Shown: positions 5,987-36,211, counted from the stretch's first letter. The stretch is 64,000 bases of DNA from Alphaproteobacteria bacterium (GCA_025210155.1 JAOASE010000003.1:11519-75518); one strand, 5' to 3'. Translations and numbers: made by a program. The notes: generated by a model not told the origin, from the sequence alone.

Positions 5987-6916
5987 ATGCCAAAGAAACC
6001 AACTAAAAATACTAAAGGCGCAATCAATACAAAACCTTCTCCAAAGAAGGCTGCACCTAAGAAAACATCAGTAGACTTAGAAGTTCAAGAACAAAAAGCA
6101 AGACATAAAGAGCTGTCTGAATTCCAAGGTTCAAAAGCATTAATCGCAGTTATATTAGTTGCAATCATCGCAATCGGATCTCTATTAATGAACTTATATA
6201 ACAATAGACCAATTGACTTAAGCTCAAAGAAAGTTCTATTCGTAATGACGTCTCATTCAGATATAAAATCAGATAATCCAAGAGAGACAACTGGCTACTG
6301 GTTATCAGAAGCATCTGAAGCATACGAAGCATTCAGAAACGCTGGATACGAACCAGTATACGTAAGTCCTAAAGGCGGATTACCTCCAATCGACGTAAAA
6401 AGTTTAGATTTTATAACTTATCCAAACAAAAAGTTCTTAAGAAATGAAAACGATAAACTAGTTGCAACATTCAAACCAGAAGACATCGATTATGCAAAAT
6501 ATAGAGCAATCTATTTCGTAGGTGGTCACGGAGCAATGTTCGATTTACCAAACAACGAAGCTCTACAAGAAATCACAGCTAAAATATATGACAACGGTGG
6601 TGTAGTTGCTGCAGTTTGCCACGGTGTGGCAGGTATCGTTAACGTAGAACTTAAAAACGGTAAAAAATTAGTATATGCTAAAGAAGTAACAGGCTTCACT
6701 AACGCAGAAGAAGAAAAAACAGGCTTAAAAGAAGTAATTCCTTTCATGCTTCAAAATGAATTAGAAGCTCAAGGCGTTATCTTCAGAGCAGGTAAAGACT
6801 TCCAAGAAAACGTTATAGTAAGTGGAAACTTGATAACAGGTCAAAACCCTCAATCTACTCATAAAGTAGTTCAAAAAGTTATCGATATTCTAGAAACTCA
6901 AAACTATAACAAATAG
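5987..6916 (+). CDS. DJ-1/PfpI-family (class I glutamine amidotransferase-like) protein with a basic N-terminus and one TM anchor
   Basis: AAVCHG nucleophile-elbow motif (Cys-His) of the DJ-1/PfpI/Hsp31 family. N-terminal Lys/Pro-rich segment followed by a hydrophobic helix. Terminator hairpin at about 6941-6975. Confidence 0.7.
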   Translation: MPKKPTKNTKGAINTKPSPKKAAPKKTSVDLEVQEQKARHKELSEFQGSKALIAVILVAIIAIGSLLMNLYNNRPIDLSSKKVLFVMTSHSDIKSDNPRETTGYWLSEASEAYEAFRNAGYEPVYVSPKGGLPPIDVKSLDFITYPNKKFLRNENDKLVATFKPEDIDYAKYRAIYFVGGHGAMFDLPNNEALQEITAKIYDNGGVVAAVCHGVAGIVNVELKNGKKLVYAKEVTGFTNAEEEKTGLKEVIPFMLQNELEAQGVIFRAGKDFQENVIVSGNLITGQNPQSTHKVVQKVIDILETQNYNK

Positions 6917-7107: not shown

Positions 7108-7136
7108 TTGACTTTTAGAACATTTTATATTATACT
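7108..7136 (+). promoter_or_regulatory. Sigma70-like promoter TTGACT-N17-TATACT at the head of the phage-like module
   Basis: Exact 17-nt spacing. Followed by an ~80-nt leader and an intrinsic terminator. Confidence 0.55.
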
Positions 7137-7213
7137 CGAAAACATATAAAGGGGAGAATTGTATTAATTTTTTCCTTTAAATTAACAAATAAGTAAAACA
7201 ACACTCTCGAACA

Positions 7214-7242
7214 CCTACTTTTTATAAGTAGGTTTTCTTTTT
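7214..7242 (+). terminator. Intrinsic terminator or attenuator in the leader (cctact-ttttata-agtagg + TTTTCTTTTT)
   Basis: Perfect 6-bp stem plus T-run, located between the promoter and the first ORF's SD (GGGGAGAGA) and ATG at 7291. Confidence 0.6.
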
Positions 7243-7290
7243 GTGCTATCGGGAGTTGGTTTCATTTAATAGGGGAGAGAATTTAAAACA

Positions 7291-7599
7291 ATGTCAGCAG
7301 AAGTAGAAATGATGAGAACTGGAATAGACATCTATTGGTGGATATCTGTCATAGAAATCCCAATCTTAGGACTTCTATTCTATCTTATAAGGAATAATGG
7401 GGAAGCAACTATTAAAGGGGATGAAAAGTTAGAGAATAAACTAGACTATCAAATTTCAGAATTACTAAAAGAATTATCAGAATTCAAGCTATATTCAGCA
7501 AAAGAATATGCATCAATATCATACATAAAAGATCTAGAAAAACGATTGACAAATCACTTAATAAGGATAGAAGAAAAAGTAGAAAATACAAAATTATAA
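7291..7599 (+). CDS. Hypothetical protein with an N-terminal TM helix and a coiled-coil (102 aa)
   Basis: SD GGGGAGAGA precedes the ATG. Hydrophobic IYWWISVIEIPILGLLFYLI segment. Confidence 0.4.
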   Translation: MSAEVEMMRTGIDIYWWISVIEIPILGLLFYLIRNNGEATIKGDEKLENKLDYQISELLKELSEFKLYSAKEYASISYIKDLEKRLTNHLIRIEEKVENTKL

Positions 7600-7652
7600 A
7601 CAAGTTTATTTAAAGTAAAGCTAGAATCGAATTGCAGAGAAGGGAGAGAACA

Positions 7653-8177
7653 ATGAGGCAAAGCATAAAAAAGGCACAATTACCAAATAATTTTAAAATA
7701 AGATTTATCATTTCAAAAACAATATTTGATGAATTAAAGAGCATGCCTCACAAAACCAAACAAAACTTCGAACTAATAGAAACTATGGCTCAAAGCATAA
7801 TAAATCTTCTAACGAATAATTCAAAAGAAGTTATCAAAACGACATGCAAAACGCTGTATGAGAATATAAGGTATACGCAAAAATATTTAATGCATCACAC
7901 AGAAGATGACCTAAAAAAATTTAACTATGGACTTACAAAAGATGTGTATGATGAAGCTTTCCGACAATATAAAGAAAACAAATTTTATAAATCATATCAA
8001 AGAACTGTTACTAAATTATTAAAAGGGTATCACGAACACAAAACAGAAGATAAATATAGAGAAAAACTTTTTCACTATCATAAAGAACAACACTTTCCAG
8101 ATTGGGCAAAAGAACAGTCTGAAATATTGAAGCTCTCGGGCTTCATTTTTTATAACCAAATAAGATGGAGTAAATAA
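7653..8177 (+). CDS. Hypothetical protein
   Basis: ORF 7632..8177. The ATG at 7653 follows GAAGGGAGAGAA, the likely start. Confidence 0.4.
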   Translation: MRQSIKKAQLPNNFKIRFIISKTIFDELKSMPHKTKQNFELIETMAQSIINLLTNNSKEVIKTTCKTLYENIRYTQKYLMHHTEDDLKKFNYGLTKDVYDEAFRQYKENKFYKSYQRTVTKLLKGYHEHKTEDKYREKLFHYHKEQHFPDWAKEQSEILKLSGFIFYNQIRWSK

Positions 8178-8179
8178 AA

Positions 8180-8398
8180 ATGAGAATATTAATAAAAGAA
8201 CTACTAAAAGTACTAGTCGTAGATATTGCAAAATTTGTAATAAACATAGCTAGTAAACCAGTTAAAGATATTGCAAGTAGTGTTGCAAAAGCAAGCGCAA
8301 ATGCAGTCGCAGTAAGAGCAGAAAAAACAAAAGCAGATATAAAAGAAATGATTGAATCATCTAAAGAAAAGCTGGAGGAAAAACTAAATGACAAATAA
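8180..8398 (+). CDS. Small Ala/Lys-rich protein (72 aa)
   Basis: Overlaps the next ORF in ATGA...TAA fashion, suggesting translational coupling. Confidence 0.3.
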   Translation: MRILIKELLKVLVVDIAKFVINIASKPVKDIASSVAKASANAVAVRAEKTKADIKEMIESSKEKLEEKLNDK

Positions 8399-9164
8399 CG
8401 AAATCAAAAAAGAAGTTAAGGAAGAAACTAAAAAGGTTGAAGAAGTTACAATTTCTAAAAAACCAGATTTCTTACCAAAAAAATTCTGGGATGAAGAGCA
8501 GGGCACAACAAGGCTGGAAGAAATGTCTAAAAGTTATAAAGAGTTAGAAAAAAAACTTTCTCAATTAAGCCAAGAAGTAAATTCCCTTAAGGAGGAAAAG
8601 ATAGCAGCAGAGGATAAAAATCTTTTAAAAGGAGAAAGCTTACCATCATCTCCAAAACAATACTTAGACGAAATTGATTTCGATATAATAAATGCTTCAG
8701 AAGAAATTAACCAAGTTCTTTTCGATGCGAAATATTCCGTTGAGCAAGTAAGAACTTTCTACGATGTTTTAGTTAAGTTTATAATGCCTGAAATCTTAGA
8801 GCTATATCATGATGTGAAAGCATATAATGATCTAGAAAAATTAAAGGATTATTTTGGCGGAGAAGAAAAATTTGCTTCTATCTCTAGACAGATTAATTCC
8901 TGGGCAATTAAAAACCTTGAAAGCAGAGTTTACAAGAGTTTATCAAAGGATAGCAAAGGAGTTATTGCTATGTATAAAATGATGCAAGAAGAAAAAAACA
9001 ACAATTCCTCATCAATAAATTCTCTACAAGACGGACACAAAAAAACAAGAGAAGAAGAGGAAAAACATCTTAAAGATATGATGAAAAATCCTTCTTACTG
9101 GCGAGACAAAGATCCTGAATATAGAAACAAAGTAGAAGAAGGTTTTAAGAATCTATACACATAA
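8388..9164 (+). CDS. Putative scaffolding protein (T7 gp9-like C-terminus)
   Basis: Acidic coiled-coil protein. Its C-terminal MMKNPSYWRDKDPEYRNKVEEGF resembles the T7 gp9 C-terminus (…MSDPRYRTDANYRRQVEQKV), as recalled. Lies upstream of the capsid gene. Confidence 0.55.
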   Translation: MTNNEIKKEVKEETKKVEEVTISKKPDFLPKKFWDEEQGTTRLEEMSKSYKELEKKLSQLSQEVNSLKEEKIAAEDKNLLKGESLPSSPKQYLDEIDFDIINASEEINQVLFDAKYSVEQVRTFYDVLVKFIMPEILELYHDVKAYNDLEKLKDYFGGEEKFASISRQINSWAIKNLESRVYKSLSKDSKGVIAMYKMMQEEKNNNSSSINSLQDGHKKTREEEEKHLKDMMKNPSYWRDKDPEYRNKVEEGFKNLYT

Positions 9165-9378
9165 ATTAGTATAATAAATAGTATTTAAAGTATTTTGTGC
9201 GAATAGATGTAAAGATGATTTTTATATTTGGTATTGTGTATATTTTAATACTCAATTGCCAAAGATTAAAATCATTTTTTACGATTAGCTCGTGCAAAAG
9301 AGTTTAAATAATAATAATAGCTTGAAAAAAAGAACTAATAAGATATAATACGCTCATCAAAATAAGAAAGGAGCAATT

Positions 9379-9987
9379 ATGCCTTATAACAATAACAGAC
9401 GCGGTCCATATAAAAGTAACAACCGCAGAAGAGCAAAAAGCAAAAAAGGTTTGATTTATAAAATAAACGAAAACCTAATAATGAAATGGTCAATATTATT
9501 ACTAGTTATCTTCCATTTCGCAATGAGCGCTATGTTTAGAGCAGAAAACTTAAACCAAGTATTTGGTCTATCGGCAATAGCTGAATTTGGAGTTCTATCT
9601 TTAAGAATATTCCAATCATTCTTATTCATTTTCTTACCATTAGTATTAATCAAATACTTCAAAGTTAGAAAAGCAAGAATAAGCTTAAGCTCAATAGCAA
9701 GAAAAGCAATATGCAAAAGAATTGGCCTAGCAGTATTATTAGGTCTAGCAATCACATTGCTATCATTCTTCTCACCAAACAACGGTGGAGAATTCTTAGT
9801 AAGAAGATATGTAGGAATTTTTGCTATACACTCAATCTATGTGTTCTTAATGATTTCAGCATTAACAGGAATTTGGAAAGGTTTCTCTTTCATCTTCGAC
9901 GCTGAAAAACAACAAAACAGAAGAAGAAATAACAACGGATATAATAAAAATAATAGACGTCCAAGAAGAAATTATTCTAAAAAATAA
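9379..9987 (+). CDS. Membrane protein with four TM helices and Arg/Asn-rich N- and C-terminal tails
   Basis: N-terminal NNRRGPYKSNNRRRAKSKK and C-terminal KQQNRRRNNNGYNKNNRRPRRNYSKK tails flank the hydrophobic helices. Strong SD AAGGAG. Terminator at 10017-10050. Confidence 0.5.
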   Translation: MPYNNNRRGPYKSNNRRRAKSKKGLIYKINENLIMKWSILLLVIFHFAMSAMFRAENLNQVFGLSAIAEFGVLSLRIFQSFLFIFLPLVLIKYFKVRKARISLSSIARKAICKRIGLAVLLGLAITLLSFFSPNNGGEFLVRRYVGIFAIHSIYVFLMISALTGIWKGFSFIFDAEKQQNRRRNNNGYNKNNRRPRRNYSKK

Positions 9988-10016
9988 TTTTAGTTTCTAC
10001 TGAGAAGTAATTACAA

Positions 10017-10050
10017 AGCCCTAAGTTTTCCTAGGGCTTTTTTGTTATTT
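10017..10050 (+). terminator. Intrinsic terminator (agcccta-loop-tagggct + T-run)
   Basis: Perfect 7-bp stem, 8-nt loop, TTTTTGTTATTTTT. Confidence 0.75.
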
Positions 10051-10337
10051 TTCTAAATAGCAATTAAGAGACAAACCGAAAGGTCCTCTAAACAAAAAAC
10101 AAATAAAATCAAGGCGTTTTAATCAAATTAAAACACAACCTATCGCAATTAAATAAATCAAAAAAAATAATATCACGAAAATCTTCGCAAATAAGTATTT
10201 AGGGTTTAACCGAGTATTTTGTGCGAAGGAAGGTAAAATAAATTTTAAATCGCAGGGAGTTTATAGTTAATAAATGACCAAGATTTAATAATTGTAATTT
10301 TGCCTTAAATTCGTGCAAAAGACGAAAGGTAAAAAAA

Positions 10338-11165
10338 ATGGCTAATACTATAGACCAATCATTCATAAAAAACTTCGAAGCAGAAGTTCACTTAGCATAC
10401 CAACAAACAGGTACAAAATTAAGATCAACAGTTAGAGTTAAAAACGACGTAATTGGATCAGCAACAGTATTCCAATCAGTAGGTCAAGGAACAGCATCTA
10501 CTAAAGAAAGAAACGGCTTAATCCCAGTGATGAACGCAACACACACACCAGTAGAATGTGATCTACAAGACTACTACGCAGGCGACTGGGTAGATAAACT
10601 AGATGAATTAAAAACAAACATCGACGAAAGAGCTGTTATCGCATCAGCAGGTGCATACGCTTTAGGTAGAAAAACAGATGAGCTAATCATCACAGAACTG
10701 TCTAAATCTACTCAAGAAGTTGTTGAAAATTCAGAAGGCTTAACAAAAGGCAAAATCATGAAAGCTATCGAAACATTAAACGCAAATAATGTTCCAGACG
10801 ATGGTCAAAGATATGCTGTTGTAGGCGTTCACCAATGGACTGAATTATTAAATATGCCAGAGTTCACTTCAGCAGATTACGTAGGTGATAACTATCCACT
10901 AGTTAACGGTGCAGAAGCAAGAAAATGGATGGGGGTAATTTGGATCTTACACACAGATTTGCCATTAAGCACAACAACAAGAGAATGCTTCATCTACCAC
11001 AAGAATGCAATCGGTCACGCAATCGGACAAGATGTAAAAACAGACATCAGCTGGCAAGGTGAAAGAGCTGCAAACTTTGTATCAAACTGCATGAGCCAAG
11101 GTTCAGTTCTTATCGACGCAAAAGGCGTAGTAAAAGTATCTTGCGACGACACAACATCAGTTTAA
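10338..11165 (+). CDS. Major capsid protein, T7 gp10-like (short form)
   Basis: The C-terminal GERAANF...GVVKVS resembles T7 gp10 ...ERARRANF...AVVFKV. Position between the scaffold and gp11-like genes. A strong terminator follows immediately, as Tφ follows gene 10 in T7. Confidence 0.6.
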   Translation: MANTIDQSFIKNFEAEVHLAYQQTGTKLRSTVRVKNDVIGSATVFQSVGQGTASTKERNGLIPVMNATHTPVECDLQDYYAGDWVDKLDELKTNIDERAVIASAGAYALGRKTDELIITELSKSTQEVVENSEGLTKGKIMKAIETLNANNVPDDGQRYAVVGVHQWTELLNMPEFTSADYVGDNYPLVNGAEARKWMGVIWILHTDLPLSTTTRECFIYHKNAIGHAIGQDVKTDISWQGERAANFVSNCMSQGSVLIDAKGVVKVSCDDTTSV

Positions 11166-11189
11166 AAACTGCTTGAGATATAGAATATA

Positions 11190-11216
11190 AGACCGTTTTC
11201 AAAGCGGTCTTTTTCT
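11190..11216 (+). terminator. Intrinsic terminator directly after the capsid gene (agaccg-ttttcaaag-cggtct + T)
   Basis: 6-bp stem plus T-run. Same position as T7 Tφ. Confidence 0.7.
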
Positions 11217-11374
11217 CATTTAAAGCATACATTTTGAATCAACACTTTAACTAATTTACAATATCCAAGTTGACTCAACACTTCAATTGAATCAATTAAT
11301 TAAGAATATAAGCCTAAGAATCGGAAAAGACTCAAACTTTAACCAATAAAATCACCAATTTACAGGAGAACAAA

Positions 11375-11953
11375 ATGCCATCATCTACAACAAAAATCGA
11401 TATTTGCTCAAAGGCCTTAATGAAGATAGGAGCAAGTCCAATCCAATCACTAGAAGAGAATACTTCAGAAAGCATTATCTCATCTCAATTTTATGACATA
11501 GTAAAAGAGAGTTTATTATCAGAACATGAATGGTCTTTCGCAACAAAAACACAGGAATTAAATATCCTGAATGTAGAGAGTGATCAAGAAGGATACGAGA
11601 ATGTTTTCCAATTACCACATGACCTAATAAGAGTGTTAAGCATAAGCTCTTCAGCAAATGGAATTTCTATAGACTATAAACTTTATCAAGATGAAATTCA
11701 TACCAACGCAGAGAAAGTTTATATCACATACATATATAGAGTCGGAGAAAAATACTTTCCTCAATTCTTTGTAAATTTAATGACTACTTCTTTAGCAAAA
11801 GAATTTGTTATGCCACTGACGGAAGATAACTCAAAATATAACTCATTAATGAACGAAAGTATAATGCTTTTATCAAAAGCTAAAAACCAAGATTCAGATC
11901 AAACAAAAATTAAAAAGATAAAAACATTTAGTTTAATTTCAAGCCGTAATTAA
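11375..11953 (+). CDS. Tail tubular protein A (adaptor), T7 gp11-like
   Basis: 192 aa (T7 gp11 is 196 aa). ICSKALMKIGASPIQSLEE...SEHEWSF resembles gp11 VNDILASIGEPPVSTLEG...SRGWTF. Confidence 0.7.
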   Translation: MPSSTTKIDICSKALMKIGASPIQSLEENTSESIISSQFYDIVKESLLSEHEWSFATKTQELNILNVESDQEGYENVFQLPHDLIRVLSISSSANGISIDYKLYQDEIHTNAEKVYITYIYRVGEKYFPQFFVNLMTTSLAKEFVMPLTEDNSKYNSLMNESIMLLSKAKNQDSDQTKIKKIKTFSLISSRN

Positions 11954-11981
11954 AAAATTAAATTAATAAAGGATACAATAT

Positions 11982-14063
11982 ATGCAAAAGTCATACACAA
12001 AAAGCAACAACTTCAGATTTGGAGAAGTGAATTATTCTGGCTTAGAGAACTTAGGATCCAAGTATAAAAACAATACATCTTTCCTTCAAAGAAATATGCA
12101 GGTAGAAGAAACTGGTCAAATCAAACGAAGACCTGGATTAAAGAAAATTTCAGACCTTGAAGAGAATGCTAAGATTATTTCTATGCAGACTAGCATAGAA
12201 GACAAATATATTTTAGCTATAGGAGAAAGTAAGATAAGAGTTTTCAAGGACGATAAGCTAATCTGTACAATATCAAAAAGCCCCTTTAAAAAAGAAATAC
12301 TTTCAAGTTTGCAATATATCTCTAAAGATAATAAAATTTTCGTTACCCACCCAGACATAGAAACAAAAGTCATAGTAAAAGAAAGCGATACTAATTGGAA
12401 AATTCAAAATATAGAATTTGATATAGATTCTTATACGGGTGAAAGTTTTGAGCCATTCGCATACTTTGAAGATATGCAAAATAAAGGTATAAAAGCAACT
12501 CCTATAATAATAGATCCAGAAGATTTAGATTGGGATCAAGAGGGCGCTGGTGAATGGGTTTTAAATCCAGATTGGATGGAGAGAAATGAACCAGCATATA
12601 CTTTCGTAGAGGACGAATCTACACCTCCCCCTCAAGTAGAAATAACATGCTCCGATATATATGATATATTCAATTTCGATTGCAAAAATATAAAAATGAG
12701 AATTGGAGATGGGGAATATCGAATTACCCACGTAGTAACAACAAGGAAGTTACTAGGAGAAATAATAAAGCTTCCTACTGATTTTAAAGAGAAAAATCCT
12801 TCAGTCTCAGAACAAGCCTTTTCAAAAAAGCGAGGTTGGATAAGAAGTATAAATTTCTATCAAAACAGAATGGTGGTAGGTGGATCAAAATCGCTTCCCA
12901 AAAGAATATGGATGTCTAAAACAGATAACTTCTTTAATTTTAATTTAGGATCAGCATACGATGGAGATGCTATAGAATTTGATATACTTTCCCAAAATGA
13001 AGAAACTATTCAAACAATATTTACAGGAAGACATCTTCAGGTTTTTACAAATAATGCTGAATGGATAGTAACAGGATTTCCTATCACACCAACTAGTATA
13101 CAATTGCAGAAACAAACAGAACTAGGTTCAAACCAAGACAACTATCTTAGCCCTCAGTTTATAGAAGGTTCTACAATTTTTATATCTAAGAACAAATCAG
13201 AAGTTTGCGAATTCTTCTTTGGAGAAATAGAGGAGCAATATCAAACAGAAAACCTAGTTAGCTTATCTAATCATTTATTAAATAAACCACTAGAAACATC
13301 TTACAATAAAAATGAAAAAATATACTTTATAGTAAACAACGATGGAAGCCTAGCCACATTGACCATGAGTAAAAATTATGGAGTTAGATCTTGGGGACTA
13401 TGGGAAACAAAAGGTTCATTTATCTCAGTGGAAAGTTTGAATGAAGAAACTTATGTGGTAGTAAGAAGAAACGACAAACCATATTTAGAAAAGTTTGATT
13501 TCACAGAATTAAATACCTATACAGATTGCGAGATTACCATATCCAGAGAGGATGATAAAAGAGATAATATATTTGAAATTATAGATTATCCAGAACTTTT
13601 AAAAATAAAGGACTTAAAAGAGCAAACTAATGCAATAATTTTAGCAATAGGAGACGGCGAATTCCTAGGAGAACCTATCATAGAGAATGATGCTATAAAA
13701 CTTCAAAAACCAGTTAACAATCTAAGATTAGGAATAGCATATAGGCATATCCTTGCTCCATCACCAGAGATGATAGAATTTAAAAAGATAAGATTGCTGG
13801 AAGTTTCTTTCAGATTATCAGAAAGTAAAAACCTTTCAATAGATACTGGGCAAGGAATAAAGAATATATCATTAAAAGAATACGATAATTCAGAAACATT
13901 CCTTTCTTCAGAAAATATAAAAGGAACTTTCTCAGGGGATATAAATATAAAATCATTCGGATGGAAAAAAGCAGGAAGCCAAATACTTTGGAAAATAGAT
14001 GATTATTATCCAAACAATTTCAAGGTAATTTCATCACTCTCAAAATTTATTGTAAATAAATAA
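11982..14063 (+). CDS. Tail tubular protein B (nozzle), T7 gp12-like
   Basis: 693 aa. N-terminal ETGQIKRRPGLKKISDL...KIRVFKDDK resembles gp12 ETEGLQKRPPLVFLNTL...GIRVFDLSGNEK. Internal FYQNRMVVGGS...NFFNFNLGS resembles gp12 FFRNRLGFLSG...KYFNFYPAS. Confidence 0.7.
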   Translation: MQKSYTKSNNFRFGEVNYSGLENLGSKYKNNTSFLQRNMQVEETGQIKRRPGLKKISDLEENAKIISMQTSIEDKYILAIGESKIRVFKDDKLICTISKSPFKKEILSSLQYISKDNKIFVTHPDIETKVIVKESDTNWKIQNIEFDIDSYTGESFEPFAYFEDMQNKGIKATPIIIDPEDLDWDQEGAGEWVLNPDWMERNEPAYTFVEDESTPPPQVEITCSDIYDIFNFDCKNIKMRIGDGEYRITHVVTTRKLLGEIIKLPTDFKEKNPSVSEQAFSKKRGWIRSINFYQNRMVVGGSKSLPKRIWMSKTDNFFNFNLGSAYDGDAIEFDILSQNEETIQTIFTGRHLQVFTNNAEWIVTGFPITPTSIQLQKQTELGSNQDNYLSPQFIEGSTIFISKNKSEVCEFFFGEIEEQYQTENLVSLSNHLLNKPLETSYNKNEKIYFIVNNDGSLATLTMSKNYGVRSWGLWETKGSFISVESLNEETYVVVRRNDKPYLEKFDFTELNTYTDCEITISREDDKRDNIFEIIDYPELLKIKDLKEQTNAIILAIGDGEFLGEPIIENDAIKLQKPVNNLRLGIAYRHILAPSPEMIEFKKIRLLEVSFRLSESKNLSIDTGQGIKNISLKEYDNSETFLSSENIKGTFSGDINIKSFGWKKAGSQILWKIDDYYPNNFKVISSLSKFIVNK

Positions 14064-14150
14064 TATTAACTATTGATTTAAACTTTCATATGAGTAAACT
14101 ACGATGAGTTATTTTATATAACTAAATTTAAATATGAAGGAGAAATCATA

Positions 14151-14429
14151 ATGAAAAAAGTATTACTTACAGCTATTATAGCTTTAACAGCATCATGTGC
14201 TACAAGACCTCACCAAGTTACTAACGTTAAAGTAGCTCCAAGTGAATTAAAAGTTGGAAAATCTTGTGAAGATAGATTTTTACACATGTTCCCAATGGGT
14301 TCAAAAAATGGAAACTCAATTCTTAGAGCTAAAGAAAGTGCTGGTATTACACAAATTATGAGTGTCGATGTAGAAGGTAGAAACTGGATCTTAGGTTCAA
14401 CTGAATGTACTATCGTTACAGGTAAATAG
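14151..14429 (+). CDS. Small lipoprotein (signal peptide plus lipobox LTASC)
   Basis: MKKVLLTAIIALTASC. Strong SD AAGGAGAAATCATAATG. Own terminator hairpin at about 14445-14480. Confidence 0.5.
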   Translation: MKKVLLTAIIALTASCATRPHQVTNVKVAPSELKVGKSCEDRFLHMFPMGSKNGNSILRAKESAGITQIMSVDVEGRNWILGSTECTIVTGK

Positions 14430-14516
14430 TTTACAAAACTAAAGAATTAAAATTACAGTCGGAAATATCCGGCTGTTTTTTTTATACAATAATCAATCAC
14501 AAAAGGAGAGATAAAG

Positions 14517-14993
14517 ATGATATCACTAATATCTAGTGTCAACTCACTAGGATCTGATCTAATTTCAGGGAGCAGTTCAAAGGACGAAAGCCGATTGGCT
14601 AGAGAAAGAGCAAAAGAAGAAAGCAAAATAAATAAAGAAATAGCAGAAGTTAATAAGTACTATTCTGATTTAGAAAGTAGAAATCTTTTAGAAGAAAATC
14701 TAAGCAATATTTCAGCAAACTACGGAGCTTATAATATGAGTTCTACAGAAGGTTCTGCAAAAGCCGCAAAGAATAGAGCCGTTAGAGATTACAATAATGA
14801 CACAGCTCAAAGGCAAAAGCTATTTGATCTAAATATGGAAAAAGCAGACAAACAACTTCAATTTGATACAGAGGCAAATCTATTAGAATATGATAAAAAT
14901 TCTAAAAGAAATAGCCTTAACAATTTCGAAAATATATTAAAAGAAATCGAAAGCCACGACGAAACTCTAAGATCTCAAAGATATAGAACATAA
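14517..14993 (+). CDS. Hypothetical coiled-coil protein (phage module)
   Basis: SD AAAGGAGAGATAAAGATG. No recognisable motif. Confidence 0.4.
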   Translation: MISLISSVNSLGSDLISGSSSKDESRLARERAKEESKINKEIAEVNKYYSDLESRNLLEENLSNISANYGAYNMSSTEGSAKAAKNRAVRDYNNDTAQRQKLFDLNMEKADKQLQFDTEANLLEYDKNSKRNSLNNFENILKEIESHDETLRSQRYRT

Positions 14994-15005
14994 AGGAGAG
15001 AAAGT

Positions 15006-15719
15006 ATGATAACTAACAAATCAGTCCTAATAACATACCTAGCAAATGGAACTTCAAAACAATTTTCATTCCCATTTAAAATATATTCAGCAGATGAATT
15101 AAAAGTGTCCATAAATGGAAAAGAAATACAAACTACATTCATTATAGAATATCACGAAGATGTAGAAGGTGGAATGATAACATTTGAAACAGCTCCAGTT
15201 ACAAATTCAGAAGTCTCAATCAAGAGAGTTCTAGATATTACGAGAAAGCACGACTTTCAATCAGGTGGAAGCTTCAGAGCTGAAGACATAAATCAAGAAC
15301 TAGACTACCAAACTCTGTGCCTTCAACAAGTTAATTACGAACTTGGGAATGCAATGAAATTTGGATCAGATGTCGAAGATCAAGATATAGACTTAACTGT
15401 TCCAGAACCAAAAGCGGGTTGTATGATGGTTTGGAACAAAACAGAAAATGGACTAGAACTAAGAAACGCTGACCTAATAATAGAAGCAAGCAATGAAGCT
15501 CATGACTATGCAACTATCTGCCAAGATATGTACGATGCAATGTCTACATTATTAGGAACTTCAGAGACAGCGGGTTTAGCAGGAAAAATCCAAGACATAT
15601 TAACTTTCTTAAATAATAAATTCCCAGAAGACTTTGATGATAATGGTGAGATAAAAGATAGCTCATTAGTATCTAATGACTTAGGAGAAATCACAGAAGG
15701 CGATAATGGCGGAATTTAA
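15006..15719 (+). CDS. Tail fibre protein, N-terminal (tail-attachment) domain only, T7 gp17-like
   Basis: MITNKSVLITYLANGTSKQFSFPFKIYSADELKVSING...VSIKRVLDITRKHDFQSGGSFRAEDINQ parallels T7 gp17 MANVIKTVLTYQLDGSNRDFNIPFEYLARKFVVVTLIG...IELRRVTSTTDRLVDFTDGSILRAYDLN. The protein is 237 aa against 553 aa for gp17. Confidence 0.7.
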   Translation: MITNKSVLITYLANGTSKQFSFPFKIYSADELKVSINGKEIQTTFIIEYHEDVEGGMITFETAPVTNSEVSIKRVLDITRKHDFQSGGSFRAEDINQELDYQTLCLQQVNYELGNAMKFGSDVEDQDIDLTVPEPKAGCMMVWNKTENGLELRNADLIIEASNEAHDYATICQDMYDAMSTLLGTSETAGLAGKIQDILTFLNNKFPEDFDDNGEIKDSSLVSNDLGEITEGDNGGI

Positions 15720-16347
15720 AGATGAAAAAAATTTAAAAGAAAATATAGAAAAAATAACATTTTTAGATTTCATAGAATTATGGAATCAAGATCAGGAGCA
15801 AACAACTCCTGCCCACCATAAAAAGATTGCACGGTGGTTAGAAAAATTATGGCTTGAAGAAAAGTCAGACAGAAGAGGGGTTTTAATGTCCTTCAGAGGG
15901 TCAGGTAAATCTACCATAGTAGGTTTATTCTGCTGTTGGCTACTTTATCAAAACCCAAATCTAAGAATATTGGTAATATCAGCAGAAGAACGCCTAGCTG
16001 GTAAAATGAGCAAAAATGTCAAAGCCATAATAGAAAGACATGCGCTGCTTTCACATCTTATACCAAAGAAAAAGGGAGGGCGATGGGCAAGCAAAGAATT
16101 CACCATAGAAAGGTTCAAAGAAATGAGAGACCCTTCAATGCTTGCCATAGGACTTTCAGGAAACGCAACGGGATCTAGAGCCGATATAATAATATGTGAC
16201 GATGTCGAAGTCCCAAATACTTGCGATACTGAATTGAAAAGAGAAGAGTTAAGAGAGAGATTGGCAGAGTTAGAATTTATAATAACGCCAAAAGGAATGA
16301 TTCTATATGTGGGTACTCCCCATACAGAAAATAGTATTTATTATTAA
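15706..16347 (+). CDS. Terminase large subunit, ATPase domain (T7 gp19-like), N-terminal ORF of a split gene
   Basis: Walker A FRGSGKST and Walker B IIICDDVEV. LRILVISAEER, TGSRADIIICDDVEVPNT and LYVGTPHTE match T7 gp19 LKILIVSASKER, TGSRADIIIADDVEIPSN and IYLGTPQTE. Ends with TAA at 16345-16347. Confidence 0.85.
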   Translation: MAEFKDEKNLKENIEKITFLDFIELWNQDQEQTTPAHHKKIARWLEKLWLEEKSDRRGVLMSFRGSGKSTIVGLFCCWLLYQNPNLRILVISAEERLAGKMSKNVKAIIERHALLSHLIPKKKGGRWASKEFTIERFKEMRDPSMLAIGLSGNATGSRADIIICDDVEVPNTCDTELKREELRERLAELEFIITPKGMILYVGTPHTENSIYY

Positions 16348-16681
16348 AAAAAGAATCAGTAAAAGGGAAATATTCATTTTTGGACAAAAAAATATGTCAA
16401 GAAAGTTCTAAGAAAAAACAGTGGCTTACAACTTAAAAATAAGAAAAATGAAAAAAATGTCAAAAAATAGTTGACAAAATAAAATGAAAGTTCTAAACTA
16501 AACTTACTTTCGGAGATCTCCCTACTTATTTCTCTCTCCTCTTTAAGAAGACTCCGAAAGTTCTTTTTAATCCTCGGAGTTTCCTTTATATATCCTTTCC
16601 TCCTTTTTTTAAGAGCTCCGAGGTTTATTTAAAATGCGCCGCAAGGCGTTTTTTTATTGTCTAAAATCCAGGGGAGAATAA
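16348..16681 (+). other. 334-bp non-coding insertion splitting the terminase gene; carries two ~64-bp tandem hairpin repeats, a TTGACA-N17-TAAACT promoter-like site and a GCAA-tetraloop terminator
   Basis: Hairpin A 16506-16561 (actttcggag / ctccgaaagt, 10 bp, 36-nt CU-rich loop). Hairpin B 16572-16623 (cctcggag / ctccgagg, 8 bp, CU-rich loop). Units A and B align as direct repeats. 'gaaagttct' occurs three times. Terminator 16636-16657 (cgcc-gcaa-ggcg + T7). Then the SD GGGGAGAATAAATG. Confidence 0.6.
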
Positions 16682-17551
16682 ATGCAAAAGATTTACAACA
16701 AAACAATAGATAACGAATTAAAACCTAAAGAAGAAGAAACAGAAAAGCTTCTATCAGGATATAAAAGATTAAAAATTCCTTTGTTATCAGAGGCTGGAAG
16801 ATCAGCTTGGTCAAAAAGATTTCCTCTGAAAAGAATTAAAGAACTTCGTAAACGAGTAGGGGAAAAGAAATTCCAAGCTCAAATGCAATTACAACCAGTA
16901 AACTTAACAGATCCATTTTTCGATATAAATGATTTCAAAACATATGACATATGCTTTTCAAAAACAGAGCAAAACTTCCGATCAGTCTATAAAATTAATA
17001 ATGAAAAAGTCGTCCAGGCCTCATCCTATTGGGATCCATCTTCATGTGGAAGAAAAAGAGACGGTTCAGTTCTAGTCATAGCATTCAAAGATAACAAAGA
17101 CAGAATATACATAGAAAAAATCATATACTTAAACTCAATTATCAAAAGAGGCGAGGAAGGAATAACGAAACAAATAGAAGAAGTTATTTCTATATTAAAA
17201 AAATACGATATAGGAATAATTCACATAGAAACAAATGGTATAGGGAAATTTATCCCAGAATTAATAAACAAGGAAATTCGCCGACTACGACTAAAAATAG
17301 AAGTCTCAGAAATTTATAATCATAACAGCAAGAGTATAAGAATTATGGAAGGAATAGAACCTCTAGTTTCAGCAGAAATAATAAGCTTTAATAAAACAAT
17401 ATTTTCTAAGGCAAATCAGTTCATAAATGAAATTAAAAATTGGCGACCAAACATAGACGGAAAAGATGATGGATTGGATGCCGTTTCAGGCATAACATTA
17501 AATAGGTTTAAGAATATAATTCCATCACCATCAATTATGAAATTTTATTAA
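16682..17551 (+). CDS. Terminase large subunit, nuclease (C-terminal) part, T7 gp19-like
   Basis: RIKELRKRVGEKKFQAQMQLQPVNLTD matches T7 gp19 [28 protein letters not shown]. An in-frame TAA lies immediately upstream of the ATG. Confidence 0.75.
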   Translation: MQKIYNKTIDNELKPKEEETEKLLSGYKRLKIPLLSEAGRSAWSKRFPLKRIKELRKRVGEKKFQAQMQLQPVNLTDPFFDINDFKTYDICFSKTEQNFRSVYKINNEKVVQASSYWDPSSCGRKRDGSVLVIAFKDNKDRIYIEKIIYLNSIIKRGEEGITKQIEEVISILKKYDIGIIHIETNGIGKFIPELINKEIRRLRLKIEVSEIYNHNSKSIRIMEGIEPLVSAEIISFNKTIFSKANQFINEIKNWRPNIDGKDDGLDAVSGITLNRFKNIIPSPSIMKFY

Positions 17552-17630
17552 AACTTTTTACTTTTATAAATATATGATTTTTGTTATAATAAAGCCAAAA
17601 TATACTAATAATTTTAAAAGGAGTTAGATT

Positions 17631-18077
17631 ATGACAAAATTCAATCAAAGAGGTAGAAGTATTGTAGAAGTTATCGGTGTTCTAGCAATAGCTTCAATCG
17701 GTATCGCTCTTGCAATGAGAACTTATCAAAAGAATGATGCAAAAGTAAAAATTACAAAGACTATGTATAATATTTCAGAATTAACAGATAGTATTAAAAC
17801 TATATACTGGGGAAGAAACAGCTATAGTGGAATAAATGTTACTCGTCTAGAAAATAAAGGTGTGGATCCTAAATTCTTAAGAGATGCATATGGTACAAGT
17901 TTAGTAATAGGTTCTCAATCTCCATTTAGTTCATATACAATCCAAATTGTAAATATTGAAGATCAAGAAGATTGCTATAAATTTGCTGCTAAAAAACTAG
18001 AAGGTATGGATGAAGCTGAAACGACAGATACATGCTCATCTACATCTAATAAAACAGTTACTTTCACTTTTAATTAA
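17631..18077 (+). CDS. Type IV pilin-like protein (prepilin-type N-terminal domain), tandem paralog 1
   Basis: N-terminus MTKFNQRG|RSIVEVIGVLAIASIGIALA: a Gly followed by Glu at +5 and a hydrophobic helix, as in class III signal peptides (KGFTLIELMIVVAII...). SD AAAGGAG. Confidence 0.55.
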   Translation: MTKFNQRGRSIVEVIGVLAIASIGIALAMRTYQKNDAKVKITKTMYNISELTDSIKTIYWGRNSYSGINVTRLENKGVDPKFLRDAYGTSLVIGSQSPFSSYTIQIVNIEDQEDCYKFAAKKLEGMDEAETTDTCSSTSNKTVTFTFN

Positions 18078-18089
18078 GGAATTTATAAG

Positions 18090-18557
18090 ATGAGAAAAAA
18101 TAATCAAAAAGGTATGTCTATCGTAGAAGTTTTAGGAACTTTAGCAATAGTAACAGTAATGTCAGTTCTTATAGTTTCTTTCTATACGAAAGTATCTACT
18201 AAAGCTACATTCAAAAGAACAGAATTCTTATTAGAAGATATTAGAGGAAAAATAAATTCTATTTATATAGATGGTAATTATTCAACTCTAACACTAGATA
18301 ATTTAAATGATGAACTAGAAGGCCAAGAATTAATAAAAGCAAAGCACCCATTCGGTGGAGACGTTGCTCTTTGCGGTTCATCAGACGGTTTCAATATCCG
18401 TTTAAGTGACCTAACTCTTGAAGAGGCTACTAAATTAGAAGCACTTGGAGAAGGTGACTTAGAAAAAGTATCAGACGATGTTTATAGAATAATTGCTTAC
18501 AAATCTAATAGTAAAGCAAAAGATTACGACAACACAAGATTTTGTAACAACTTCTAA
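18090..18557 (+). CDS. Type IV pilin-like protein, tandem paralog 2
   Basis: MRKNNQKG|MSIVEVLGTLAIVTVMSVLIV, the same architecture. Followed by the terminator 18584-18608. Confidence 0.55.
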   Translation: MRKNNQKGMSIVEVLGTLAIVTVMSVLIVSFYTKVSTKATFKRTEFLLEDIRGKINSIYIDGNYSTLTLDNLNDELEGQELIKAKHPFGGDVALCGSSDGFNIRLSDLTLEEATKLEALGEGDLEKVSDDVYRIIAYKSNSKAKDYDNTRFCNNF

Positions 18558-18583
18558 TAAAGTTTAAACAAAACTAATGAAAA

Positions 18584-18608
18584 CGCCCTCAATTGAGGGT
18601 GTTTTTTT
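18584..18608 (+). terminator. Intrinsic terminator (cgccctcaattgagggtg palindrome + T7)
   Basis: Perfect palindrome followed by a T-run. Confidence 0.75.
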
Positions 18609-18793
18609 ATAAAAAACTTCATCAAGCAATCTCTCCCCAGAGAGTTTTGGATAGTTTGCTTTAGATAGAAGCGAAAATGATTTTTAAATTTAATATTGCG
18701 TATATTAATACTCAATCGTTGAATTTCAAAATTATTTCTCGCGATTAGATGAAGTTAAATATACGAAACATTAATATTATAAAGGATAATTAA

Positions 18794-20329
18794 ATGAAAA
18801 AAATACCAGAAATAAACTCAAACTTAATAAATAGAGATACTCTAATTAAAGAATATAAAAAGGCAAAAAACAAAAGAAGCAATTGGGAAAATCTTTGGGA
18901 AGATTGCATAAAATATTCATCCCCAGAAAGATATGGAAGCTTCTATAACTCATTCCAAGAAGCTAATAAAAACAATGTAGATATCTACGACTCAACTGCA
19001 ATTTGCGGGGTAGAAAATTTAGTATCTACAATAGCTTCAAGCCTAACACCATCATATGAAAAATGGTTTAATTTATCTCTAGGAAATATCACTGTTGAGG
19101 ATGAAACAACAAAAGCAAATATTGAAAAAGATATAGAGAAAATAGAAAAAACAATTTCAGAAAATATCTCACTTTCAAACTTCGCGACAGAAATACAACA
19201 ATGTTACTTTGATCTAGTTACATTGGGAACCTCTTGTCTGTTCTTCGAAGAAAACCAAATAGGTAAAAAATCTGCCTTCAGGTTTAAATCAGTTCCATTA
19301 AACCAACTGACTATAGATGAAGACAGCGAAGGTAACGTAAATAAAATCTATAGAGAAACAAGCATAACGGTAGAAAATCTACAACTTCGTTTCCCAGAAT
19401 TTTTTGAAGAAAATGGTTTAAGTAACCTCGCAACAAAGTTCAAAGAAGAGCGAGTTAAACTGATTGAAGCTGTAGTCCCTAATATGAAAGAAATAGGACA
19501 GCAAGGCTTTGTATATACAGCATTTATAGAAGATGAAAAAAATATCCTTACACCTAAAAAATCAGCAAAAGAAGATAACATATTAGTATTAAAAGAAGGT
19601 GTCTTACAAAGCTCTCCATTCATTTGTTTCAGATGGTTAAAAACCTCAAGCGAAGTATATGGAAGATCACCGGTAATGAAGGTTCTTCCAGATATCAAAA
19701 CAGCAAACAAGGTTGTAGAACTAACTTTACAAAACGCAACAATAGCAATCTCAGGAGTATGGCAAGCTGAAGACGACGGAGTAATTAACTTTAATAATAT
19801 TGATCTGTCACCAGGTTCAATAATACCAAAAGCAATAGGCTCTCAAGGTCTATCACCATTACAAACAGGAGCTAACTTCAACGTTTCACAACTAGTCCTT
19901 TCAGACTTAAGAAACAATATAAATAAAGCGTTCTATACAGATGTTCTAGGTAAGCCGGAAGAAAGCAAACAAATGACTGCAACAGAAGTTTCTGCAAGAA
20001 CAATGGAATTATATCAAACACTTACAGCAGTGTTCTCACGACTTCAAACGGAACTCCTTACACCATTAATCGAAAGAGCAGTAAGCATCCTTAAAAGAAG
20101 AGGGGAGATAGCAAACCTAATCATAGATGGAAATATAATCTCATTAAAATACAGTTCACCAATAATGAACGTAAACAACGACAGAGAAATAGCAAACATC
20201 CAAAGATTTATATCTTCACTAAGCATTCTAGGAGAAGGTCAATTATCCAACATAATAGATACACAAAAGTTAATAAACCACCTAGCAGAAATCACATCCA
20301 TCCCAAAAGGATTGCTAAAAACAGCCTAG
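18794..20329 (+). CDS. Portal (head-to-tail connector) protein, T7 gp8-like
   Basis: 511 aa (T7 gp8 is 536 aa). The N-terminal YKKAKNKRSNWENLWEDCIKYSSP...IYDSTAICGVENLVSTIASSLTPSYEKW parallels gp8 RLKNDRAPYETRAQNCAQYTIP...WQAVGARGLNNLASKLMLALFPMQTW. Confidence 0.7.
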   Translation: MKKIPEINSNLINRDTLIKEYKKAKNKRSNWENLWEDCIKYSSPERYGSFYNSFQEANKNNVDIYDSTAICGVENLVSTIASSLTPSYEKWFNLSLGNITVEDETTKANIEKDIEKIEKTISENISLSNFATEIQQCYFDLVTLGTSCLFFEENQIGKKSAFRFKSVPLNQLTIDEDSEGNVNKIYRETSITVENLQLRFPEFFEENGLSNLATKFKEERVKLIEAVVPNMKEIGQQGFVYTAFIEDEKNILTPKKSAKEDNILVLKEGVLQSSPFICFRWLKTSSEVYGRSPVMKVLPDIKTANKVVELTLQNATIAISGVWQAEDDGVINFNNIDLSPGSIIPKAIGSQGLSPLQTGANFNVSQLVLSDLRNNINKAFYTDVLGKPEESKQMTATEVSARTMELYQTLTAVFSRLQTELLTPLIERAVSILKRRGEIANLIIDGNIISLKYSSPIMNVNNDREIANIQRFISSLSILGEGQLSNIIDTQKLINHLAEITSIPKGLLKTA

Positions 20330-20409
20330 AATAAAAAAAATAAAAATTTTAATTGAAATTTTTAGTTGTTTATATATTAAATGCAATTTTAATTAAAATT
20401 TAAATAAGT

Positions 20410-21186
20410 ATGATTATTGAAAAAAGTTATTTGTATGAGGCATTGACAGGTAATGGTAACTGTTATGTTGTTGATCAAATGGAATCTACTATGGATCCTT
20501 TTAAAGAAATGAAGCTTGGAGATATAGAACTCTCGGAATGGGACGTTATTGTGGCTCGACTTCAAACTAAAGGAAAAGGAAGAACTGGTAGAAAATGGTT
20601 GTCAGAAAAAGATCAAACATTGTGTTTTTCTATGGCTTTACCAACTTCTTATGCAGCTTTAGCACTTAAAATAAACATTATTAGTGGATATGCTATCTGT
20701 GATGTTATTAAGGAGTTTGTAGGTGATAGGGCTAAAGTGAAATGGCCAAATGATGTCCTAGTTGATAAAAGAAAGTTATCAGGGATATTGTTTCATAATA
20801 ATTCTGGTAATTTATGTATGGGTATTGGTGTGAATATAAATCAAACATCATTCCCTGAAGAAATAAAGGATATTGCAACTTCATTGCGTATTGTAACAAA
20901 TAAGAATCATGATCCAATAGAAATATTAGATAAGATTTTAAAATCCTTTATTTATAAGTTAAAACTTCTTCTTTCCGAAGAGCTTAAAATTGAGGAAAAA
21001 TACCCAGAGTATTCTCAATACTATAATCAAAAAACTAAAGTTCACTTAAAGGATGGAAGTAGTTATAAAATTATAGATAAAGGGATAGATGAGGATGGTT
21101 TATTAATAGCTCAAAAAGAAGATGGAACTGAAGAGCATTTGGTTTCAGGAATAGATGTTGGAATAAACCTTTATCCGAAAAAATAA
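20410..21186 (+). CDS. birA: Biotin--[acetyl-CoA-carboxylase] ligase (BirA catalytic type)
   Basis: LQTKGKGRTGRKW is the GRGRxGRxW biotin-binding motif. Confidence 0.8.
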   Translation: MIIEKSYLYEALTGNGNCYVVDQMESTMDPFKEMKLGDIELSEWDVIVARLQTKGKGRTGRKWLSEKDQTLCFSMALPTSYAALALKINIISGYAICDVIKEFVGDRAKVKWPNDVLVDKRKLSGILFHNNSGNLCMGIGVNINQTSFPEEIKDIATSLRIVTNKNHDPIEILDKILKSFIYKLKLLLSEELKIEEKYPEYSQYYNQKTKVHLKDGSSYKIIDKGIDEDGLLIAQKEDGTEEHLVSGIDVGINLYPKK

Positions 21187-22525: not shown

Positions 22526-22850
22526 TTTATATATTTTTGGTTATTTATATTTTATCTACTATACAAATCAGCATATACTCGAAAAAATATTTGTCAAGCT
22601 ATTTTTCAAAAATTATTTCTCTAATCAAATCTCCCTTGAAAATTATTAAATGGTCTGGTATCTTATTCCCATAAAAGGAAAGGTATTTTAAGATATTCAT
22701 CCAATAAACGACAACTCTTGGAGTTTTGGATAGTTTGCTTTAAATATTTTTAAAATCGGCTTTCGTATAGTATAAATAATACTTGAGAAATCGATTATTA
22801 AAAATAGATATGAAAAATATACGAAACCCTAGTATTACAAAGGAAATATA

Positions 22851-24553: not shown

Positions 24554-24621
24554 GCCCCTAAAAAAATTCTTTTTATAAAGAAACAAAACGATTAGTCGTG
24601 CAAAAAACGAAGGAAAAAATA

Positions 24622-36069: not shown

Positions 36070-36211
36070 AAGGCTTTTAGATAAAATTAAGGAGTTACAA
36101 TTTGTGACTTCTTTTTTTCAATTGATTTCCCAGTAAAAGAATTTATAATAATTAAAGAAAAAAACTAGAATAGTTTCTATTTAAATTCGTGAAAAAGACG
36201 AAGGATTAAAA

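Follow-up and report, generated by a model that had tools for sequence, protein, structure and literature searches.

A T7-supergroup podovirus module resident in alphaproteobacterial chromosomes, most likely a gene transfer agent-like system

Gene content and chromosomal setting

We analyzed a 64,000-nt stretch of DNA, hereafter the window, from a metagenome-assembled alphaproteobacterium (GCA_025210155.1, JAOASE010000003.1:11519-75518). Its proteins match NCBI entries MCT4552146-MCT4552167, encoded on a contig of 1,048,500 bp. The subject of this report is a podovirus-type module of about 13 kb on the plus strand (7291-20329). It belongs to a run of approximately 17 plus-strand open reading frames (ORFs) between two housekeeping genes, a DJ-1/PfpI gene (5987-6916) and the biotin ligase gene BirA (20410-21186). 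A sequence-only reading had placed seven consecutive T7-type genes here. All seven homologies were confirmed by Pfam, PHROG and PDB profiles and by BLAST, the profile searches retrieving T7-supergroup structural proteins, and the T7 gp9 and gp10 motifs which that reading had named proved accurate on comparison with the T7 sequences. The genes follow the order 9-10-11-12-17-19-8 but are not consecutive, as a membrane protein, a TRL-family lipoprotein, a 158-aa ORF and two pilin-like genes intervene. In direct BLAST and phmmer comparisons with T7 proteins only the N-terminal half of the terminase and the portal were significant, and the remaining assignments needed profiles; by BLAST, capsid, gp11 and gp12 had no significant direct match to their T7 counterparts. 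The capsid also belongs to a different Pfam family from that of the nearest T7 relatives. The nearest phages are HTVC010P-type pelagiphages (in EXVC031P Hodr, capsid 45% and portal 33% identical) and Legionella phage LME-1, so that the description "T7-like" holds at the level of the supergroup and not for T7 proper or the Autographiviridae.

The head genes begin with a scaffolding protein resembling T7 gp9 (8388-9164, plus strand, as are all module genes below). It matches PF05396 (T7 capsid assembly) at E = 1.3e-4, under the gathering score; the same family was found at E ≤ 1e-5 in orthologues that are 29-39% identical to the window protein, and the C-terminal motif agrees with that of gp9. 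The major capsid protein (10338-11165) belongs to the HK97-fold family PF19821 (E = 8e-78; phrog_3437, 1e-75) and matches the capsid of LME-1 (PDB 9EG4, E = 5e-33). An AlphaFold2 capsid model made from a 25-sequence alignment reached a pLDDT (predicted local distance difference test) of 48. Directly 3' of the capsid gene stands a terminator (11189-11211), as Tφ does in T7 and as had been noticed from the sequence. The tail genes are a gp11-like adaptor (11375-11953; phrog_394, 7e-46; PDB 8CK1_E, 1e-19 and 9EFK_T, 4e-17), a gp12-like nozzle (11982-14063; phrog_376, 3.5e-78; PDB 8CK1_A "Tail Nozzle", 1e-85 and 7Y22_Y "tail tubular protein B", 1.6e-5) and a short fibre with the N-terminal tail-binding domain of gp17 (15006-15719; PF03906, 2.7e-6, above the cut-off). 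The fibre matched 18 PHROG fibre families and its family hidden Markov model (HMM; 5.6e-35). A full-length fibre had been said to be absent, and the protein is indeed a short one built on the gp17 N-domain; it is not truncated, however, because orthologues in close relatives measure 220-240 aa and this length is the norm of the sub-clade. The gp8-like portal (18794-20329; PF12236, 1.6e-107; T7 gp8, 8e-12) closes the module, and a scan of genome contigs with the portal as query returned five distant loci only. Three contigs among the comparison loci (numbered with an L) end at ~13732-13740 inside the nozzle gene, namely L009 and L001 from one JGI sample and L003 from a separate run in Logan; strains may differ in the C-terminal portion of the nozzle, which could explain this shared breakpoint.

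Between nozzle and fibre lies a gene for a 158-aa helical protein (14517-14993), a candidate for a gp14-like internal virion protein by synteny and weak profiles. Its family occupies the slot after the nozzle in all lineages, where T7 has gp13/gp14, and 7 of 14 members match PF24072 (T7_gp14) weakly, at best with E = 0.0077. The window ORF reached only E = 0.0027 against its family HMM. Alignment of the family by hhalign was likewise weak (E = 0.33 with T7 gp14, 0.0048 with a 159-aa protein of Hodr), both alignments landing on the same motif, and a PDB profile search with the family returned nothing. We consider that the module probably encodes a gp14-like internal protein. The proposed absence of gp13-16 is therefore doubtful with regard to gp14, and stands for gp15 and gp16, of which no homologues were detected.

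Pfam annotation, run directly or taken from precomputed calls on matching contigs, covered most of the larger ORFs of the window, the remainder being small ORFs without hits. Neither an integrase nor an RNA polymerase nor any replication gene turned up over the 64 kb, as the sequence-only reading had stated for the block. When att-like repeats of the two tRNA genes (tRNA-Met, tRNA-Thr) and direct repeats on either side of the block were sought, only chance matches of ≤11 nt came up, in keeping with the reported lack of an integrase or att-tRNA junction. No recombinase was found in the window, and the 13-kb block is not the att-bounded, genome-length element of an integrated prophage. The rest of the window is housekeeping in nature, with cell envelope, tRNA modification, sugar and polysaccharide genes. 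Rfam detected two tRNAs and nothing else over the window, and PADLOC found no defence systems among uncharacterised neighbouring ORFs. Base composition is similar inside and outside the module (GC 0.325 against 0.312 in the flanks, ~31% for the window), which confirms the observation that the block is as AT-rich as its surroundings.

Lysis genes had been listed among the missing functions, and this is doubtful. The first module gene (7291-7599) encodes a 102-aa, spanin- or holin-like protein with an N-terminal transmembrane helix and a coiled coil. It matches phrog_29007 (3.9e-22) and the family HMM of its relatives (2.9e-31) and shares 47-53% identity with the L018 and L019 orthologues. Where relatives have their terminase intact, the gene follows the large terminase and precedes the hydrolase. 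The second gene (7632-8177) encodes a diverged homologue of cell-wall hydrolases of the Hydrolase_2/SleB endolysin type (family HMM, 5.4e-8; phrog_938 endolysin, 0.001). Hydrolase_2 enzymes occupy this slot in relatives. Pfam returned no match for the window protein itself; in the alignment it retains both the Glu of TIYGE and, at the C-terminus, the motif H..P.W...FYN. On these homologies, the module probably contains lysis-like genes. The Glu of TIYGE is gone from the homologues in the window's closest relatives, L181 (7531-7971) and L182 (7489-7929), and this may mean that the sub-clade is losing its lysis enzyme or giving it another role. A 72-aa ORF that overlaps the scaffold start (8180-8398) sits in the slot of the relatives' holin-like gene with two transmembrane segments, to which it has no detectable homology.

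A large terminase in two parts and its spacer RNA

The large terminase (TerL) of the window is encoded by two ORFs parted by a non-coding spacer of 334 bp. TerL-N (213 aa; 15706-16347) is the ATPase half, 37% identical to residues 46-209 of T7 gp19 (E = 7e-31), and keeps Walker A (FRGSGKST), Walker B (IIICDDVE) and GTPH motifs. TerL-C (289 aa; 16682-17551) is the RNase H-like nuclease half (PF22530, 2.5e-7), with all three acidic nuclease motifs kept. The two cover positions 259-459 and 467-699 of phrog_38, respectively. Homology to gp19 had been recognized correctly, but it resides in two separate ORFs and not in one gene. Among 44 loci holding both parts, 34 have TerL as two ORFs and 10 as a single ORF of ~500 aa, the split forms spanning 29-54% GC. 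The break is found at the identical alignment position in every split form, just past GTPHTxxTIY, with a short variable linker removed, which fits one ancestral event. The DNA between the halves ranges from 0.2 to 4.6 kb among loci, and in L181 the halves are reordered, TerL-C following the portal. Because both halves are under purifying selection and tolerate such intervening DNA and reordering, we read them as separate working subunits. A search of 50%-representatives with TerL-N was uninformative about the split, as these clusters mix full- and half-length proteins. No description of a conserved two-gene large terminase was found in a full-text literature search of incomplete coverage.

The small terminase subunit, reported as absent from the block, was indeed not detected there; family HMMs and mapping of the loci revealed no candidate in split-type lineages, the window's sub-clade included. 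In intact-terminase lineages a 104-aa ORF recurs directly upstream of TerL and is a possible small terminase.

The spacer between the window's terminase halves harbors an element (16471-16655, +) made up of a promoter-like site (TTGACA-17-TAAACT, 16471-16499), two hairpins with CU-rich loops of 30-36 nt (within 16504-16568 and 16569-16630) and a canonical intrinsic terminator (16636-16655). The minimum free energy z-score of the RNA is -4.5. The same hairpin is present in the spacers of L018 (16883-16951) and L019 (15849-15919), with compensatory changes at 6 of 8 stem pairs among the three sequences, and a covariance model located the RNA 3' of TerL-N in L181 (15574-15630 and 16159-16225) and L182 (17018-17083). 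In a strain whose adjacent TerL-C has a synonymous divergence (dS) of 0.12, 213 nt of spacer are 100% identical. No Rfam family matched the spacer RNA, and a repeat search of intergenic regions ruled out, within the window, that the spacer is a repeated or mobile element. We read the spacer as a conserved small RNA or leader, and its anti-Shine-Dalgarno-like loops suggest translational control.

Recurrence, integration into host chromosomes and selection

Capsid homologues numbered 4783 at E ≤ 1e-20. The best 120 of these are 60-72% identical to the window protein, and many come from contigs 0.2-1 Mb in length that carry the label Alphaproteobacteria or Rickettsiales. Confirmed relatives amounted to 449 in metagenome contigs and 544 in IMG/VR, and the module recurs at approximately 170 fetched loci from Alphaproteobacteria. 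Samples with relatives came from gut, rumen and termite. Close capsid homologues also occur in cultured carriers, among them Azospirillum argentinense, A. halopraeferens, Skermanella and Rhodocista, and Azospirillum sp. TSO22-1 has a protein that does not differ from the capsid at one of the IMG/VR loci. The same gene set recurs at more than 60 loci of at least 12 kb, with local order kept and in few arrangements; presence and synteny thus extend across many alphaproteobacterial loci. Many IMG/VR "viral genomes" (L101-L180, 10-18 kb) are the chromosomal module excised by provirus callers, and several of these entries begin exactly at the capsid gene.

In the commonest arrangement (architecture A) the order is hydrolase, holin-like gene, scaffold, capsid, small gene, adaptor, nozzle, gp14-like gene, sometimes a fibre, and TerL-N, followed by ~3.3 kb on the opposite strand and then by TerL-C, portal and a Bbp19-like gene. 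The opposite-strand genes stand exactly between the terminase halves (L016 14387-17722 and ~30 other loci) and encode a 225-aa ORF, a 334-aa protein with a double helix-turn-helix (HTH) and a DnaB-type helicase that is 71-92% conserved. Architecture B/C opens with an S24 LexA-like repressor, two small genes, portal, Bbp19, scaffold and capsid, continues to the fibre and ends with the possible small terminase, an intact TerL of ~500 aa, the transmembrane protein and the hydrolase. The window forms a sub-clade with L018, L019, L181 and L182, characterized by a split TerL, a short spacer, a pilin-like gene after TerL-C and a portal at variable distance. The window copy lacks a post-capsid gene of ~75 aa, which 81 loci of relatives have, as well as the Bbp19-like gene and the regulator, a Cro/CI-type HTH or an S24 LexA-like repressor, that stands beside the module in relatives. 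The label "degenerate" thus applies to two or three small genes, but not to the large genes or the catalytic motifs of the terminase, all of which are intact. In L007 (9965-12426, OZ245897.1), L006 and L004 a portal surrounded by housekeeping genes is all that is kept, besides scaffold fragments or two small ORFs upstream of it, so that decay or dispersal of the module also occurs.

Several observations tie the module to its host chromosomes. Its GC content tracks that of the flanks over a range of 30-71% (r = 0.96, n = 43), and flanks are conserved within clades. Host genes interrupt it: DnaB lies between the terminase halves at 34 fetched loci, FtsZ between TerL-N and the portal in L181, and genes for a PAS-GGDEF-EAL protein and a hybrid histidine kinase between scaffold and capsid in Azospirillum. 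Some genomes have their module genes scattered across more than 10 kb, and in L004 and L018 the portal is that far away, beyond AmiC, RuvB and FtsZ. Every module gene is under purifying selection, with ratios of nonsynonymous to synonymous substitution (dN/dS) of 0.01-0.25 over nine pairs; the least saturated pair gave 0.01 for capsid, 0.02 for TerL-N, 0.08 for TerL-C and 0.02 for portal. Comparisons of the window with L018 and L019 were saturated and unusable, and we took instead the strain variant L184 from another sample, in which TerL-C differs at 25 nt and 5 residues (dN/dS 0.06). Divergence ranks are congruent across the module genes, which argues against phage-style mosaicism, and a housekeeping amidase common to two relatives is 35-39% identical where the capsid is ~70%. 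The early and replication genes and the gp15-like gene of the nearest phage have no homologues at 168 loci, and a gp16-like gene was found at one of the 168, a viral contig of 35 kb whose capsid is 59% identical. Integrase and replication genes went undetected by Pfam in the window and at the sampled loci, and by comparison with the genes of the nearest phage at the others.

Recurrence in diverged chromosomes, host-matched GC, interruption by host genes, missing integrase and replication genes and purifying selection together support domestication. We consider the block very probably a selectively maintained, vertically inherited phage-derived module, and every comparative test run agrees with the proposal of a long-resident, host-integrated particle system rather than an active prophage. 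That it should be the functionless remnant of a cryptic prophage, decaying after deletion of early, replication and ejection genes, is very improbable and largely refuted. The module does lack many phage functions, its terminase is interrupted and small genes are gone from the window copy; real decay is seen elsewhere as well, in the portal and scaffold fragments of L007 and in the hydrolases of L181 and L182 without the catalytic Glu. Yet thirteen intact ORFs persist in a reduced genome of 1.05 Mb with fully ameliorated GC, the low dN/dS values hold both for TerL-C in the window lineage and family-wide, and the identical split point and motifs are kept across all 34 split loci. It is improbable, too, that the module is part of an active mobile element, be it a temperate podovirus or a capsid-forming satellite, whose other genes lie elsewhere in the genome or come from a helper phage. 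This reading would agree with the labelling of these regions as proviruses by IMG/VR pipelines, with the 35-kb viral contig and its gp16-like gene, and with the CI/LexA-type repressor of relatives. Integrase and att sites, however, are absent at every examined locus, DnaB and FtsZ inside the module look essential, and neither the separation of module pieces by more than 10 kb, nor the congruent divergence, nor the host-matched GC is expected of such an element.

Signs of host control are mixed. The sequence-only reading had the genes driven by sigma70-like promoters, which counts did not support (61 sites found against 58.8 expected from shuffles), and had them share upstream motifs with housekeeping genes, which 22-nt motifs bear out for two module genes, capsid and portal. 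A 22-nt leader, TTAAATTCGTGNAAAAGACGAA, stands just upstream of the ribosome-binding site of both the capsid gene (10305-10326) and the housekeeping gene tsaD (36181-36202); it forms a small hairpin, and the two copies are identical except at one loop position, with 0.01 matches expected by chance. Two conserved blocks are common to the portal 5' region (18642-18793) and the sequence (22721-22850) upstream of a DHH/DHHA1 phosphoesterase gene (22851-23753), namely an exact 22-mer ~130 nt upstream and a block of ~30 nt at the start codon. These blocks suggest a shared or duplicated promoter and leader for the two genes. CtrA boxes were not enriched in the window (3 sites against 3.1 expected), and none lies in the block.

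Lineage-specific inserts account for several of the intervening genes. Between scaffold and capsid stands a gene for a 202-aa membrane protein with Arg-rich N- and C-termini (9379-9987) and its own terminator (10015-10040). Elsewhere (L016 9409-9768, L020 9403-9765) the same slot encodes a polycationic, histone H1-like protein of 119-120 aa with AKKP repeats. The slot proteins of different lineages are strongly polycationic yet unrelated, and they may be DNA-condensing cargo. A TRL-family lipoprotein gene (14151-14429; PF13146, 1.4e-9), again with a terminator (14455-14476), is absent from relatives and probably does not encode a particle component. Two type IV pilin-like genes (17631-18077 and 18090-18557), with the N-terminal G-x-S/T-I/L-V/L-E prepilin motif and weak matches to PF07963, follow TerL-C. 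Pilin-like genes with a C-terminal Cys pair occur by TerL-C in four diverged genomes, in the window as a tandem pair; in L019 (16926-17396) and L055 (19938-20405) the gene comes immediately after TerL-C, and in L018 (19489-19953) one ABC-type ATPase gene intervenes. Among the neighboring genes, phosphofructokinase (24598-25737) is a single ORF in the window and in L002, and two genes (280 and 92 aa) in L001 (10867-12005), a contig that is nearly identical elsewhere; this break is a strain-level frameshift or an assembly error.

A probable GTA-like particle: comparison, mechanism and meaning

Gene transfer agents (GTAs) are the known systems closest in kind. Three families are formally recognised, the RcGTA-, BaGTA- and BhGTA-like (PMC9662315). 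Like RcGTA-like clusters (Rhodogtaviriformidae), the module is a chromosomal, vertically inherited set of phage structural and packaging genes of ~13-15 kb without replication or integration genes, under purifying selection, of host-matched composition and sometimes dispersed. RcGTA, however, is siphovirus-like, with a prohead protease, a tape measure and a long tail. In the module, genes for a protease, a tape measure or a tail tube were not found; it has a T7-type adaptor, nozzle and fibre, a scaffold in place of the protease, a PF19821 capsid, a split gp19-like terminase and no CtrA boxes. Some very small genomes of endosymbionts have retained RcGTA-like head genes, on which purifying selection acts (George et al. 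2022, PMC9254644); these remnants resemble the module in the retention of phage particle genes by reduced alphaproteobacterial genomes, but they have lost their tail genes, whereas the module is podoviral and has kept them. Capsid-forming phage-inducible chromosomal island satellites need an integrase, a replication initiator or primase and regulatory genes beside their capsid genes, and take tails from a helper; no integrase or replication gene was found in the module, which has an adaptor, nozzle and fibre of its own. 

In 2026 an element with experimental evidence of packaging host DNA, FpGTA of Faecalibacterium prausnitzii, was described and called the first GTA-like element of podovirus type (PMC12946183). 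It shares with the module the proposed GTA-like nature, the probable podovirus-like morphology, the chromosomal location and a gut bacterium as host; it differs in its Firmicutes host, its two loci and its experimental support, the module being known from genes alone, and no relationship between them is shown. The earlier remark that no podovirus-type system had been described is thus superseded by FpGTA, and stands in a narrower form, since a full-text literature search, incomplete in coverage, found no report of a T7-type GTA or domesticated module in Alphaproteobacteria.

With T7 the module shares the order scaffold-capsid-gp11-gp12-(gp14)-fibre-terminase, the terminator after the capsid gene, the terminase ATPase and the portal, gp17 N-domain and gp9 families. 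Profiles matched gp8, gp9, gp11, gp12 and gp17-N of the Autographiviridae structural set, with gp14 weak and gp15 and gp16 undetected. Unlike T7, the module has no RNA polymerase, gp15, gp16 or gp18, and its portal follows the terminase; the RNA polymerase and replication module of the Autographiviridae were found neither in the window nor at the annotated loci. HTVC010P-type phages and LME-1 have in common with the module the capsid, portal, scaffold, adaptor, nozzle, fibre N-domain, endolysin, Bbp19-like gene and small post-capsid gene, but they are complete phages of ~30-35 kb with replication genes and large gp15/gp16-like internal proteins, and the Hodr terminase is not homologous to that of the module. 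By gene content the module does not qualify as an RcGTA-like cluster, a member of the Autographiviridae, an integrated prophage or a capsid-forming satellite. It does agree with the testable parts of the general definition of a GTA or viriform: resident structural and packaging genes occur in the window and at relatives' loci without replication, integration or excision genes, and GC correlation, conserved flanks, host inserts and dN/dS all point to long-term vertical inheritance under purifying selection. Most likely it represents a new, independently domesticated podovirus-type GTA-like system.

We favor a GTA-like system because the gene set would suffice to build, fill and release a short-tailed particle, and has nothing to replicate or integrate. 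A subpopulation of cells would express the genes from host-type promoters in several terminator-bounded units. Portal, scaffold and capsid would assemble into procapsids, TerL-N and TerL-C would associate and package chromosomal DNA non-specifically, and adaptor, nozzle and fibres would complete the short tail, with lysis freeing the particles. In phages of this type gp15 and gp16 are the ejection proteins that span the periplasm and the inner membrane. Since both are missing and gp14 is possibly kept, DNA might reach the recipient periplasm only. More speculatively, import would then fall to the uptake machinery of the recipient, as is established for RcGTA (PMC9662315, PMC7296036). The pilin-like neighbors are compatible with such recipient-driven import and do not prove it.

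We infer the type of device, whether a GTA or another, from this gene set, and a particle domesticated for some use other than DNA transfer deserves consideration, although we judge it unlikely. Such a particle could be a headed bacteriocin-like killer, a vehicle for interaction with a host or partner, or a means of programmed lysis with DNA release, any packaging being incidental. The same conservation would be expected of it, the host genome is only ~1 Mb and relatives come from gut, rumen and termite, and George et al. have put forward a similar repurposing for RcGTA-like genes in endosymbionts (PMC9254644); the loss of gp15 and gp16 would in addition cripple DNA injection. The terminase, on the other hand, keeps all its ATPase and nuclease motifs under strong purifying selection, which argues that DNA packaging is central to the function, and portal, nozzle and fibre are all kept as well.

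Other points count against a GTA-like particle. Particles, packaged DNA and transfer are predictions from the genes, the gp14 assignment of the 158-aa ORF is weak, and promoter-like sites are not enriched. The window copy could be impaired, given its loss of the post-capsid gene, the Bbp19-like gene and the regulator. Packaging may be specific in the intact-terminase relatives, which keep a possible small terminase. The LME-1 capsid, the closest one with a solved structure, has seven chains per asymmetric unit, which points to a T=7 head; in contrast to the heads of classical GTAs, one of this kind could accommodate all 13 kb of the block. Weighing these points, we still lean, with some reserve, to an ancient, vertically inherited, domesticated podovirus module for head, tail, packaging and lysis that most likely makes GTA-like particles. 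More tentative, and on the doubtful side, is the full proposal that this is a fourth, independently domesticated GTA lineage and the first from a T7/LME-1-type podovirus, spread vertically across a large part of the Alphaproteobacteria, from free-living Azospirillaceae to host-associated genomes of ~1 Mb, with a large sub-clade that has a split terminase and an embedded regulatory RNA, and with ejection proteins shed in favor of recipient-driven uptake.

If true, so widespread a T7-type GTA family would lead to new estimates of the frequency of virus domestication by bacteria and of the phages that it draws on. The split terminase, with a single split point maintained under purifying selection, is a natural experiment on the cooperation of the ATPase and nuclease domains of packaging motors. 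Cultured and genetically tractable Azospirillum carriers open the hypothesis to experiment. Provirus callers that label the module as virus, as in IMG/VR, inflate viral catalogues with host loci. Retention of the module in genomes of ~1 Mb bears on the upkeep of recombination in reduced, possibly symbiotic bacteria.

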